This document shows, in pieces, positions 12,740 to 60,202 of a DNA stretch of 64,000 bases (positions are counted from its first letter, which is position 1; every line of letters begins with the position of its first letter). The stretch is from Eledone cirrhosa (lineage: Eukaryota). The stretch covers positions 26,598,001 through 26,662,000 of the forward strand of contig OZ024762.1 in the NCBI GenBank assembly GCA_964016885.1. Reading direction: 5' to 3'. Below the pieces are notes generated by a model. That model had not been told where the DNA came from. It did not search any database and was given only the letters and a program-made list of their open reading frames with translations. Made by a program: the position numbers and the translations under genes.

Positions 12740-13119
12740 TATATACTATACTATAAACAACTATAAACAGGGAAGGTCAGTAATGTATTACTACCTTATT
12801 ACCAGTAAGAGAAATAGCTCAATGTAATAACATCAGGTGTTTTACAGAGCAGTAATATAGATTACACAAGTATCAAAGTTATGTTTAAATCATTTAATCG
12901 CTGACAATTATTTCTTCCAAACTTAAGCTTCGGTTCCTCGGAGCATTATCAATGTTTTTACATATAATTAACCTCCTAATCAACTGAAGAATTGAATAGG
13001 AGGTTAATTATATGTACACACATTGATGATGCTCCGAGGACGCCAATCTTAAGTTTGGGAGAAACAATTGTCAGCGATTAAATGTTTTAAACATAATTTT
13101 GATACTTGTGTATTCTATA
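12740..13119. mobile_element. Non-coding Penelope-like pLTR unit with inverted duplication, carrying two CCGANGA hammerhead-like motifs
   Basis: Inverted arms ~12856-12980 / 12997-13119. Motifs at 12900-12944 (-) and 13031-13075 (+). Related copies at 22830-22960 and 28270-28530. (TA)n flanks. Confidence 0.65.
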
Positions 13120-14704
13120 TATATATATATATATATATATATGTATATGTATATATATATATATATATACACACATACATATATGATTCTACATACATAA
13201 GCGCACACGTATATATATATATATGTATATATATATATATATATATATATATATACGTGTGCGCTTATGTATATATATATATATATATATATATATATAT
13301 ATATATATATATATATATATATATATATATACATACATACATATGCGTATACATATATATGCATATATATATATATATATATATATATATATATATATAT
13401 ATATATATATATATATATATGTGTGTGTGTGTGTGTGTGTGTGTGTAAAAGATCCCTGGAATTTTTCATTGAATCTACCCCATCTTGTAATTAGCTTTCA
13501 ACAGAAGCGATAATATATCTCTGTGGAGGCTATGTGAAGTATCTTGTTATTAAATCACTTCCACAAGAAATCGCTAATATGTTCCTAGCAGAAGTCAATT
13601 CTTGCACATAAATTAGTAGAGGCAAACCAACAAACCAACAAAGCCAACAAGCCAACAAGCCAGCCAACGAACGAACAAACGAACGAATGGAGCTTTTATT
13701 TTATAATAGTTTTATCAATATACACTTGTCGTTAATAACTGTTTGACATACACACAGACACACATGAAGGGAGAAAGGCGGCCAAGTCGTTATGATATTT
13801 GTACAACATACGCACAAAGACACACATTAAGAAGGAAATGCCACCAAGCCGTTATATTATCTGTATAACATACGCACACAGACACGCATCAAGATATAAT
13901 GGCAGCCGTTAGTATCAGTGTTAACATACAAATACACATACAGAGACACAGTCACACCATGGAGAGAATGACCAAGCCACGAACAGAACAAACCAGACCA
14001 GACCAGACCAAACCAGTCCCAGCCAGTTCCAATCACTCTAATAATTAGCCAGCAAACGTTGACAAATAATCTATATGTATAAAGATATATTTACGATCTA
14101 AATCAAATATATTAGGTAGACCAGACGACAACCGCAAACGCTCATACACTCATACCAGCACGCAAGCGCACACATGTACGCACACATGTACGAAACCACG
14201 CCGCCATTTTACAAAATGGATGGAAACCTTATGAACGACGTCATCAAAGAGATCATATCTGACATCAATAATATAGTCAGCCTTCCTCAATTATATAATA
14301 TATAATATATTACATACATACTTACCCCCTTCTAACATATATACTTGTATACACACACACACACACACACACACACATATATATATATATTTATATATAT
14401 ATATATATATATATATATATATATATATATATATATATATATATACAGCCTATATACATATATTTATATATACACTTATACAACTTATGTATATATATAT
14501 GTATATATATATATATATATGTATATATATATATATATATATATATATATATATATATATATATATATATATATGTGTGTATATATATATTTGTGTTTGT
14601 GTATGTGTGTGTGTGCGCAATAAATTTGAGAAGAAATCCCTCTATGTACGAATGAATTGCCAGAATAAAGAAAAAACATATATATATAGACTGCCAAGTA
14701 GCTA

Positions 14705-14835
14705 GCACAAATGTGTGGTTAAGTACTCCACCTTCCAACCAATATATTCAGGGTTCAATCCCGTAGCGTGACTTCTATGACAGTCCCGGTCTGACCAATG
14801 CTTTGTGAGTGGAATTTGAAATTTGGTAGACGGAA
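14705..14835 (+). mobile_element. Degenerate tRNA-derived SINE (second octopus-type family)
   Basis: GTGTGGTTAAG (A-box-like), GGTTCAATCCC (B-box), and GACCAATGCTTTGTGAGTGGA..GGTAGACGGAAA at the 3' end. Confidence 0.55.
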
Positions 14836-15019
14836 ATATATATATATATATATGCAGAGGTTATATTTAATTTGTTGGGATTCGGTATTGTATGTTATTT
14901 GATGAAAGCGCACCATAATTTGCCTTGGTTGCTCTTGAAACATATATAATAAAATAATTATGGTTTTATAAATATAGTTTCCATTTATTAATATATTATA
15001 TATATATATATATATATAT

Positions 15020-15146
15020 AATTGTTTCTACTTTTGGCAATTATTCCAGTGCATTACTGGTACTTTATTTTATCGACCCGGTAAGGATGAAAGGCAAAGT
15101 TAACCTCGGCGGCATTTGAACTCAGATCATAAAGGGAAGTGACTCG
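15020..15146 (-). mobile_element. Octopus-type SINE, 5'-truncated
   Basis: Reverse complement of the 42671-42855 SINE body. Confidence 0.8.
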
Positions 15147-15554
15147 ATATATATATATAATGTATAATAAACAATACAATATAATTACCTCATTACCAGA
15201 GGTTTCCCGAATAAGCCGAATACAAGAAACGTCGGCATTCGTCTTATTCGGGAAACCTCTGGTAATGAGGTAATTATATTGTATTGTTTATTATACATTA
15301 AATTTAGCTCTGTAACTTACATAGAGCACTCTTCACTCCTATGACTTTTTAAATTTTCATCAGAAACTTCAATATATATATATATATATATATATATATA
15401 TATATATATATATATATATATATATATATATATATATATATATATTTATATATATATATACATATATATATATATATACTTATATAGATATAGATATATA
15501 TGTATGTGTGTGTGTGTGTGTGTGTGTAAGTATGTGTGTGTGTGTGTGTGTGTG

Positions 15555-57000: not shown

Positions 57001-57398
57001 AGGTCACTAACCTGTGGTCTGAATAGCGACCATGAGCATTTCTGGACAACTTAAAAAGTCCATATTCTTCATTCTAACTAAGAACCTATCTAGGTACGAT
57101 CTAGATTGACCGCTATGGTTTGTCCAAGTCCAGGTTGGCACAGTCGGAAAATCTAGTCGATATCTATCGGCCAGGTCAGATCGGCCGATTAACCCCTTGA
57201 GGTTGTTACACCCCCTCTATCGGGTCATGCCCTTACATAGTCCCAACGTGCATCTAGGATACCATTCCAGTCCCCCACTAAAATCAAGGAGCGGGACGTC
57301 CCTAGAAAAGTCCCCAGACGATGGAAGATGTCCGACCGCATTGCCCCAAAGGGGGCGTAAACGGCGACCAGCCTAAAAGCTTCGCCTTCACCACTGCC
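54039..57398 (-). mobile_element. Tx1 ORF2 copy (subfamily B), mid-APE to 3' end, frameshifted
   Basis: GEAFRLVAVYAP, GPDYWKLN, KSPGLDG, DQSKAFDRV, SIRQGCPLS, YADD, C-terminal zinc finger; AATAAA then (TCTA)n at 53990-54038. Confidence 0.93.
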
Positions 57399-58160
57399 AA
57401 GCTTGTGAAATGGGGAGGGGTGCTTTGTGTTGTGTTGGTTTCTTCTGTGTTTGTTTGGTTTCTGTTAGTGATATGTTTCCTTCTTTTCCTTTTTACTGGT
57501 CGGAACGGCTCTCCTTCATCTTCGCTATGCTCCGATGTAAGGAGGTTTTCATCCGCGTTCGGGGGTAGGGGGATATTTTGTGGTAGTGTTGTGTTGGTGT
57601 GTGTATTTTTGATTGTTTTCTGTGTGGGGTGGGTGGGTGTGACTGTGATTTGTTTCGTGGTCTTTTGTTTTTGTTGTCGTTGTGGTGGTGGTGGTGATGG
57701 TGGTGTATTTTGTTGTTTTTGTGGTGGTGGTGTTGGTTGTTTTTGTTGTTGCTGTGATGTTTGTAGCAGTAGTTTTGTTTGTTGTTAGTAGAGCGCAGGC
57801 TGTCCTCAGGTGACCTCTTCCAGCACAGTGGTAACATGAGGGCCTCCTGCCTTCCACCGTAAAATTAGTGAAAGTTCGACCATCCAGTAGTACTCGGTTG
57901 GGTATTCCGGCGATTCTCACTGGTGTCATCTGTATGAGATCCACCAGACTTTTCCCCCCGAACAGTCCACTGGTGGACTCACTTGCTGATACTAGAATGT
58001 CCTTTTCTACGTCCGTGAATCCTGTCAGGACGGACCAGATGTCTACTTCTGGCGTTGAGCTCCACATTCTTAATCTTTGTGTTCTTCTTCCTTTATATGT
58101 GGGAAGAAGGTGTATTGTGGTGACACTATAGGTGCCACCGACCGTTATTGAGCCACCATT
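57399..58160 (-). pseudogene. Tx1 ORF1 fragment with zinc knuckle
   Basis: FTVEGRRPSCYHCAGRGHLRTAC, homologous to VSVEGRRPKCYLCGSKGHLRDFC in the first element. Confidence 0.8.
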
Positions 58161-58365
58161 TGGTCCTTCATTCGTTCCGTATAACCATGTCCGCTACGAG
58201 CTGAGGATCCGCTAAGGTGAAACAAATGTTCTCGGTATGGTGAACTAACTGTTGTGTAACCAGTTTTATTTATATATATATATATATATGTATATATATA
58301 TATATATGTGCTGCTGCTAGTATATATATATATATATATATATATATATAAATATATATATATAC

Positions 58366-59128
58366 CTGCAGCAGTACCCAGCGTTGCCTGGGTAGGTAAA
58401 ATAATATCTGCTTTGTTGAAAAGGTGTTGATCTTAGCGACTAATTCTCGATAACTCATCTATAGCCACACACAGTCCATGCGAGGGAGGGAGGTAATGAC
58501 CTCTAACACTAAGCCAAATTTCCTCACACTTCTTGATTTGAAACCGATGAATTCTCAAATACACAACTAAAAGCTCAGACGATCTCAGTGGCCATGGTTT
58601 TGCCTTTGACCACCTATCAGATGGGCAATGATAGGTTCTATCGTAGTATAAAAGTTGAACCAAATAAATTGATTTATGTGTGAGGTGGAGCCGAAGTTTC
58701 GAATTTGAACGAAAAGGTTTTACAATGTGGGGGAATTTGAGCGAAAAGGTGTTATTTTCGAACATTTAAGCGACAACTACGCCGTTACTAAACAAAAAAT
58801 GCAAAATATAAAGTGATTACAGGATGTGCAATGATAAATTGTATTTTGCTTTAAAATTTGAAAGAGATCGGTGGCAAAATGTGGGAGCTAGAGCCAAAAA
58901 TCTTATTTTTCGATACCTAAAAAAAGGTAACCCCCTATTGATTTTTATCTGCAGAATCACCCCTGAATAAAAATAAAATGATACGCTGATACATAGAAAA
59001 CACTTCCCGATAACTAATTTCTGAGCCTGTAAAGTTTCATGAAAATCGGTCGTAAGATATAGGCCCGTATAGGTAATACACAGACGCAGAGACATACACA
59101 CATATACTTAATTTTATATATATACAGA
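58366..59128 (-). mobile_element. Non-autonomous Helitron-like element
   Basis: Minus strand: TCTGTATATATATAAAA.. start and 3' hairpin CCCAGGCAACGCTGGG-TACTGCTGCAG. Confidence 0.65.
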
Positions 59129-60202
59129 TATATATATATCATATATATATATATATATATATATATATATATATATATATATATATATATATATATATGT
59201 ATATATATATATGCATATATATATATATATATATATGTAAATACATATATATATATATATATGTAAATACATACATATATATATATACATACATATATAT
59301 ATATATATATACATACAGACACACACACACACACACACATATATATATATATATATATATATATATATATATATATATATATATATATATATGTGTATAA
59401 TGGTAGCTATGGTGCTTCCATAGGCGGTATGCCAAAATTAGCACTCAATATTCATACAGAGTAGAGTGTGGATAGTATAAATAAACGAAAAATCAGTGAT
59501 GCATCTGAACCCAATTTATTGCGTGTTACAATTGTTTCGAGGGAAATAGGAAAAAGTATGACCCCGACGGCAGAGCTCAAGCTGTTTCGACGGCTATTTC
59601 GTGACCTTCAAGATAATAATATAACCTACAATCTCACTTGGAGCTTACTGTCCAGAGTTAAATCTTACACGGGAGGATGCCGTCCGTGTAACTTATGCTC
59701 GGAGGAAACATTACAAATGCTGTTTTCGAAGGACCAACTCCTAAACAAGAAAGACGTACTGGTAACCGCATGCAAACACAGATTGCGTAGGACTTATCTC
59801 GCCCTTAAACCCAATAACGACCCGGGTGGGTAGACAAGGGCTGAAACCCCCCTCCCACTTGCCGAATAAGTTAGGGGAAACACAAGCTTACATAGGTAGA
59901 TGTATCTCTTTTCTTTTCTTCTATATATTCTTCTTCCCCCTGTCTCATCCTATCACTTCCTTCCACCCCCTATTTTCTTCCTCGTCTGCTTTTCCCCTTT
60001 CGCCTACCCCGATGCAGCCCGTTGGGCCTCTGTAGCATCAGTTCCCCCACATCTGTCATTTTAAGATAGAATTGGCCAAATACGCTTTACTAACTACTTA
60101 TAGCAGATGTGTTAGACCCCTTTAATTTTGTATCATTTTTGTTACTACTCCATTTCTACAATGTTTTTCTATTCTCAACTTATTAACCTGTAAATGTAAG
60201 AT

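Follow-up and report, generated by a model that had tools for sequence, protein, structure and literature searches.

Penelope-like elements (PLEs) are the sister group of telomerase, and how their reverse transcriptase (RT) chooses internal start sites, and where their one-sided 'tail' and inverted ends come from, is an open question. Statements here on the three papers cited apply to the sections of their text that were available. In these, the Hydra clade of PLEs is 'generally' below 3 kb and shows an RWK motif, DKG changed to DKT, a CxCX5C linker, a hammerhead ribozyme in the pseudo-long terminal repeat (pLTR) and (TA)n targets (PMC8557442, section 11). The 'tail', an extension at one end of the inverted pLTR pair, is given as optional and as commonly or 'often' one-sided, and stays unexplained (PMC3846280, PMC8557442). 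A single PLE has been studied in vitro so far (PMC11167929); in that Poseidon element the RT starts at two internal sites, one at each limit of the tail; RNA lying 3' of them has to be present, the two strands of the target are each cut and extended, and the predicted form is a dimer (PMC11167929). Here we analyze a 64,000-nucleotide (nt) stretch of Eledone cirrhosa DNA (assembly GCA_964016885.1, contig OZ024762.1, positions 26,598,001 to 26,662,000; 'the window'), in which a preliminary description had noted one bulged hairpin downstream of hammerheads in seven repeat families. This hairpin is a real and apparently undescribed cis-element of the Hydra clade, and strong genomic evidence links it to both insertion ends. 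Families are named by the window coordinate of their hairpin, and L numbers denote further loci.

Hairpin statistics and covariation

All seven hairpins were recovered at the coordinates and on the strands first reported (Table 1). We described the motif as RCTC, an inner stem of at least 3 bp, a T bulge of 1–2 nt and a complementary GAGY, with local dinucleotide shuffles, an RCTG variant and reversed sequence as controls. Enrichment over dinucleotide-shuffled sequence was present in the window (10 sites vs 1.6 ± 1.3, maximum 6, in 200 local shuffles), in 160 kb of neighbouring DNA (21 vs 1.8, maximum 5 in 30 shuffles) and in a 400-kb sample drawn across the 3.0-Gb genome (43 vs 7, maximum 16 in 15 shuffles). 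A (TA)n run lay 35–75 nt downstream of 15 of the 21 neighbouring sites and 35–80 nt downstream of 25 of the 43 sampled sites, compared with 0 in the shuffles of either set. The raw tally is less telling: in the 400-kb sample the RCTG word gave 40 sites, just 2 of them near TA, and the reversed sequence gave 13, with 5 near TA. Because both controls reach sizeable raw counts, the TA-linked count is the clean signal.

Consistently, when sites were picked by the 3' sequence and TA alone (n = 53), NCTC stood upstream in 47, the variable outer position was Watson-Crick in 43 and the inner stem was present in 38; five shuffles of this test returned 2–6 sites and zero inner stems. Twenty-five sequence clusters, drawn from this host and others, were compared; pair 1 was Watson-Crick (A-T or G-C) in 23 of them, against a permutation mean of 12.6, bearing out the outer-stem covariation proposed earlier. 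The outer stem also occurs as GCAC/GTGC (L128 and L132). As had been described, the inner stem changes in sequence while pairing persists, and its pairs covary, although that count is partly circular. On the sense strand, the 25 clusters hold 5 G-U pairs vs 0 A-C pairs. No Rfam model covered a hairpin, either in the 150 window matches listed out of 205 or in 21 matches from six loci; the matches listed were only microRNA-like ones to microsatellites.

Element ends relative to the hairpins

Full-length copies carry, in order, the hammerhead, hairpin 1, hairpin 2 and the ATG. In 13 junction copies (seven families here and six other-host loci), the two hairpin starts are 61–146 nt apart and hairpin 2 precedes the ATG by 36–111 nt. 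Hairpin 2 is frequently the smaller, with a long inner arm in one family.

Ends were counted for 369 copies of 17 families, in loci totalling 1.06 Mb. A TA run closes 302 of the copies, another 23 run through, and the class of the other 44 was left unassigned. One further family of 25 copies, whose reference is a one-off chimera with a non-Hydra PLE, was omitted; keeping it would give 394 copies, 322 TA-ended and 157 short, with 0 added to the pairs below. Offsets are given relative to a hairpin, negative values lying in front (5') of it, and junctions are ambiguous by a few bases, since TA or AT also stands in the element at that place. Copies of one family are not independent evidence for the motif.

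The TA ends fell into two classes. Short ends stop at −14 to 0 of hairpin 1 (138 of 302, with 106 at −10 to −5), long ends lie beyond +55 (146), and the remainder are at +1 to +30 (10), +31 to +55 (0) or before −14 (8). TA dinucleotides were available in the references throughout, numbering 53, 50 and 38 in the zones −14 to 0, +1 to +30 and +31 to +55, respectively. In the subset that had not been chosen by means of these families (n = 117), 59 ends were short, 49 long, 5 between and 4 earlier. A short end was present in 16 of the 17 families. In the seven families with a known hairpin 2, 110 of 126 long ends lie at −12 to −4 of that hairpin. Thus, (TA)n junctions are mostly 5–10 nt in front of a hairpin (modal −5 to −10), which reverses the geometry first given, a hairpin followed by (TA)n 45–75 nt on. 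Since long ends stop before hairpin 2, the hairpin seen 45–75 nt before (TA)n is hairpin 1, lying in the PLE 'tail'. That distance itself fails at two of the sites: 12817 sits 104 nt away, and 23580 has no downstream (TA)n because another fragment interrupts. Nor was the proposed two-part module of hammerhead and bulged hairpin supported, as the partners of the hairpin are its twin and the insertion junction, and its spacing from the hammerhead varies.

Hairpin 2 was predicted from the long-end positions and then searched genome-wide. The predicted hairpin was found in the 18271 family (151 matches genome-wide, control 0), the 59443 family (8/9) and the 12817 family (6/6). The 20652 copy in the window terminates ~6 nt ahead of the place that hairpin 2 takes in full copies. 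Some long ends of the 23580 family enter (CT)n ahead of (TA)n (L158-L169).

Inverted insertions

Insertions with two inverted arms of the same family and free of internal TA runs numbered 69, of which 68 joined a short to a long end and 1 was unclassed; none was short+short or long+long, whereas independent ends would give short+long in ~47–49%. At loci picked without the motif the count was 25 of 26. With internally interrupted cases included (n = 72), 70 pairs were short+long, 1 was short+short and 1 unclassed. The central joint is palindromic in many insertions. What is added here to the known one-sided tail is the strictness of the short+long rule and its tie to the hairpins. Separately, chimeric joints between families were seen, joining an end from one to another family's tail or hammerhead part (window 59540; L052:3474-4440; L168), which suggests template switching between different elements.

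Identity of the elements

All seven window sites are 3' ends of distinct coding Hydra-clade PLE families. The 20652, 18271, 18830, 15307, 23580, 59443 and 12817 families each connect to a Hydra open reading frame (ORF), which for 23580 lies upstream in L069, so the families are not 'non-coding' as first described. Neither are they 'unrelated': clade ancestry is common, and 26–56 of 110 N-terminal residues are identical among six sampled families. The flanks of the seven sites could not be aligned between families (2 of 42 comparisons were matched by <5% of shuffles, about chance level), which answers the earlier concern that they might descend from one recent, alignable ancestor. Judged by these alignments, the seven are old sister families rather than recent copies of one ancestor.

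The elements have a single ORF with an RT and, at its C terminus, a GIY-YIG endonuclease. RWR or RWK was found in six families of this genome and DKT wherever a family was translated; among 120 homologues, RW[KR] occurs in 103 and DK[TS] in 119. The CxCX5C linker, and CxxC and CxH near the end, were read in L031-L034, and the three Cys patterns recur in 114, 112 and 115 of the 120 homologues. By eye, no CCHH was seen in the 20652 family, the one family inspected for it. Insertion into (TA)n agrees with the 302 of 369 copies that end in a TA run. In contrast to the <3 kb of the clade, the one family measured, 20652, reaches ~3.5 kb (L032) because of a long 3' untranslated region. Long copies of this high-copy family encode ~720 residues, and the ORF fragment beside 59443 belongs to it. 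A structure model of the ORF predicts telomerase RT (TERT) as the nearest fold. Pfam gave no family match, a PDB sequence search no match, and two scans of viral contigs no relatives. Among sequencing runs, no RNA data set was listed as carrying the sequence, a result that says nothing about expression.

Four complete type I hammerheads are predicted in the window, and hammerhead cores are also present in other families; Rfam gave no hammerhead among the matches listed for the window and six loci. Of the sites said to retain only a hammerhead 3' half (15307, 18830 and 59443), 18830 has no GAAA within 170 nt upstream, and 59443 has two such halves, from two different families, joined. The hairpin at 59443 stands, but in the register first given it has one C-A mismatch, and the scan picked a shorter register, 59443-59462. 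The stem II insert of the hammerhead is apparently ~100 nt in the 59443 family and ~50 nt, with a variant core, in the 20652 family (L171-L194). Tandem hammerhead-bearing repeats of ~470–500 nt, in both orientations between TA runs, form a retrozyme-like array at L039:555-2797.

Three other assignments were rejected. Naiad and Chlamys have an N-terminal endonuclease, DKA and no canonical hammerhead (PMC8557442), whereas here the endonuclease is C-terminal and DKT and hammerheads are present. Nine-letter matches in the Naiad/Chlamys consensi, a search in which line breaks may hide matches, fell in interior coding sequence only. Non-LTR retrozymes do not fit either, as all seven families are ends of coding elements. 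The 20652 and 59443 sites are not one family, 59443 being a chimeric joint.

Occurrence in other hosts and families

Hydra-like ORFs from other hosts were examined at 25 loci, in metagenomes and in bins filed as bacterial genomes; the bins probably hold co-assembled animal DNA. In the contigs filed as bacterial, the Hydra elements have TA-rich flanks (L128-L145). Twenty of the 25 loci, some of them of the same family, have a hammerhead and enough sequence behind it: the strict hairpin stands 49–71 nt past GAAA in 10, and its 3' half in 2; another 6 reach a microsatellite sooner, as expected of short ends, and the last 2 show none of these. Two hairpins were found in six other-host junction copies, and long ends in front of hairpin 2 in L092/L093, L128 and L135. 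Six published Hydra consensi were inspected by eye, and three of them, Hydra-2_Amil, Hydra-1_Ajap (twice, ahead of the ATG) and Hydra-2_Ajap, show the hairpin clearly.

A family-blind survey yielded 51 tailed inverted inserts, and the strict hairpin opens the tail in 21. Among the remaining 30 are degenerate Hydra copies, wrongly placed boundaries and other PLEs with 38–60-nt tails lacking the hairpin. One such non-Hydra PLE family, abundant and presumably Neptune- or Nematis-like, has a hammerhead, TA targeting, a 60-nt one-sided tail without the hairpin (window 31550-32047; L070:4947-7608; L050:8546-9770) and a C-terminal endonuclease with a Cys-rich linker. Further PLE families have ~39–54-nt tails and no RCTC hairpin (L079:1427-2848; L048:2810-3105; window 33317-33696); the endonuclease of the L079 element we take to be Penelope/Poseidon-like. 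A near-identical 38-nt tail was seen on two inverted inserts whose bodies look non-aligned (window 29946-30341; L059:1866-2054).

Proposed mechanism and alternatives

The preliminary description had seen in the hairpin a conserved cis-acting RNA signal, possibly for a Penelope-type RT. The conserved signal 3' of the hammerhead holds, with covariation, and reading by such an RT would be its most likely use. On the positions of the ends, we think it likely that each of the two hairpins in the Hydra 5' leader binds the RT and sets a start site just upstream. In this scheme, the GIY-YIG endonuclease would cut (TA)n on both strands, each cut 3' end would pair with UA or AU ~5–10 nt 5' of a hairpin, and two complementary DNAs (cDNAs) would extend toward each other and then be joined head to head. 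The cDNA begun ahead of hairpin 2 would carry hairpin 1 and the spacer, that is, the PLE 'tail'. As priming would occur upstream of the hairpin, the directing hairpin would not be copied in that event, and hairpin 2 would be copied only if synthesis passed through a tandem or circular template. More tentatively, and with confidence just short of even, we propose programmed twin priming, in which an RT-endonuclease dimer would sit on both hairpins of one RNA and one DNA end would be primed per hairpin. The step held with least certainty is that both primings would come from one RNA and an RT dimer. If true, programmed twin priming would account at once for the PLE tail and for the head-to-head inversion, and the hairpin would amount to a portable RNA tag of ~25 nt, directing a TERT-related RT to an internal start site.

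Several observations weigh against these proposals. Predicted folding is weak, with z between −0.07 and −2.06 across 12 segments. Only some contexts give the hairpin as minimum-energy form, and it is missing from the predicted minimum-energy fold at 20652, 18830, 12817 and L032, so that protein binding would probably be needed to stabilize it. The covariation of the inner pairs is counted partly in a circle because selection demanded 2/3 inner pairs. Hairpin 2 of the 23580 family was searched for twice and none was found; in the 18830 family its expected site holds just a minimal GCAC/GTGC hairpin without an inner stem, and the short ends of this family spread from −17 to 0. Arm length was resolvable in only 21 of the 68 short+long pairs. 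The hairpin is imperfect in the published consensus Hydra-1_Crog and not clear in Hydra-1_Amil and Hydra-1_Obim, again by eye. Other PLE families in the genome have tails and the same asymmetry without it; the hairpin is therefore not a general PLE signal, and the motif looks Hydra-specific.

Alternatively, the motif could act in DNA, the endonuclease recognizing it in the cDNA or an integration intermediate and cutting a few bases 5', so that the ends would be resolution sites. The tail has been ascribed to endonuclease-mediated resolution (PMC8557442), recognition by the Drosophila Penelope endonuclease was reported to depend on the tail (PMC11167929), and the letters of the outer stem and the following RCT are conserved in sequence. 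However, the inner stem varies yet remains paired, the excess of G-U over A-C pairs on the sense strand fits a single strand, and genomic ends are RT start sites in the sole PLE tested in vitro (PMC11167929). We regard DNA recognition as unlikely.

A single cDNA started at the long site might also snap back, its returning strand halting at hairpin 1, which would be a boundary comparable to the template boundary element of telomerase. Self-priming, possibly on an antisense template, was proposed and argued for in Penelope inversions (PMC3846280), and both the palindrome at the central joint of many insertions and a predicted RT fold closest to TERT would suit it. Under snap-back from the long end, however, the 5' reach of the long arm could not be less than that of the short arm. 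Among the 21 resolved pairs, the long-end arm had the greater reach in 11 and the short-end arm in 9, with 1 pair equal. The constant offset of long ends before hairpin 2 is also left unexplained, which makes snap-back improbable.

Both hairpins lie within the 5' leader in 13 of 13 junction copies, at the distances from the ATG given above, and an RNA cut by a hammerhead would carry no cap; they might thus serve translation, stability or packaging of the cut RNA, while the junctions follow another nearby feature. Such a role would not account for junction offsets that follow the hairpins even though the hairpins lie anywhere from 61 to 146 nt apart and the spacer is unalignable between families, and we rate it as slightly more improbable still. 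Chance or a selection artefact in AT-rich repeat ends, suggested by a short, weakly folding motif and by the one control word with a similar raw count, is contradicted by the shuffle controls, the success of the hairpin 2 prediction and the recurrence in other hosts, and is practically negligible.

Comparison with known systems

The elements resemble the Hydra clade in the C-terminal GIY-YIG domain, RWK/RWR, DKT, CxCX5C, the pLTR hammerhead and (TA)n insertion; they differ in that the available text on the clade describes no hairpin pair and gives tails of 30–40 nt, compared with ~60–150 nt here (PMC8557442). As in earlier accounts of the 'tail', the extension is at one end of the inverted pair (PMC3846280, PMC8557442), but here one-sidedness holds in 68 of 69 cases, and a repeated RNA motif is tied to each limit of the tail. 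Poseidon PAc of Anolis likewise has two sites bounding the tail, RT starts that were mapped there and starts that are inferred here. In PAc the sites fall within the ORF, at an AC-rich stem-loop, and no conserved binding motif is defined in the available text (PMC11167929); in the Hydra elements, by contrast, a conserved motif stands behind each site, in the 5' leader, and short+long is near-absolute.

With a conserved RNA motif named behind each end and a near-absolute short+long rule, the question of PLE start sites becomes open to direct experiment, and the hairpin is a diagnostic for locating Hydra elements and their true ends. In twin priming of L1, a single break supplies two DNA ends that each prime a cDNA, and an inversion results. 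That much resembles the scheme proposed here, but in L1 the second primer pairs at internal sites that vary, and the two arms derive from different stretches of the RNA. In the Hydra elements both sites are fixed and the arms overlap. In telomerase RNA and in epsilon of hepatitis B virus (HBV), the place of reverse transcription is set by a stem-loop with protein bound to it. Synthesis is stopped by the telomerase boundary element, which is positioned 5' of the template, and HBV epsilon templates protein priming in its bulge, whereas the Hydra hairpin would lie 3' of the inferred start and stay uncopied in that event. We found no description of the hairpin or of a hairpin-linked two-end rule in the literature text available to us, a scope outside which lie subscription papers, Repbase reports and the RNA-folding figure of PMC11167929.

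Features of the window

Positions of the hairpins and insertions are collected in Table 1. Two sites returned by the descriptor belong to a further family absent from the preliminary description, and a third extra site, at 54186, is probably a chance match.

Table 1 Hairpins, hammerheads and Hydra-clade insertions in the window
Feature	Position	Strand	Remark
Hairpin 1	12817..12850	(-)	Within tail, long arm of inverted insertion 12713-13115
Inverted Hydra insertion between TA runs	12713..13115	.	Long (tailed) end left, short end right
Hairpin 1	15307..15327	(+)	Tail of inverted insertion 15160-15371; junction copy L062
Inverted Hydra insertion	15160..15371	.	Left end short, right end long
Hairpin 1	18271..18290	(+)	~56 nt past predicted hammerhead cut
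Type I hammerhead (predicted), 18271 family	18165..18214	(+)	
Hammerhead (predicted), inverted short arm of insertion 17510-18355	17560..17609	(-)	
Inverted Hydra insertion	17510..18355	.	Left end short, right end long
Hairpin 1	18830..18848	(+)	Tail of small inverted insertion 18777-18891
Inverted insertion, further Hydra family, long-loop hairpin 1	18927..19898	.	Left short, right long
Hairpin 1	20652..20675	(+)	~25 nt past predicted hammerhead cut
Hammerhead 3' half (GAAA, stem III, predicted cut), 20652 family	20604..20626	(+)	
Hairpin 1, 1-nt bulge	23580..23599	(+)	Tail split by another fragment; partner short end ~23418
Hairpin, further family	27497..27532	(+)	Descriptor
Hairpin, same further family as 27497	38937..38964	(-)	Descriptor
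Hairpin 1, own Hydra family	59443..59467	(-)	Fused ~59540 to short-type end of 20652 family
C-terminal endonuclease fragment, 20652-family Hydra ORF	59603..59803	(+)	

Apart from PLEs, the window contains ORF fragments of non-LTR retrotransposons with endonuclease and RT motifs (693-5278, 54963-57050 and 60466-62685), which we take to be Tx1/L1-like. Positions 6298-8821 presumably hold a further non-LTR RT remnant, and 34551-35042 presumably a mariner-like transposase fragment. Young tandem arrays with periods of 57 and 37 lie at 49488-50420 and 35957-36192, respectively, their copies being ~98% identical.

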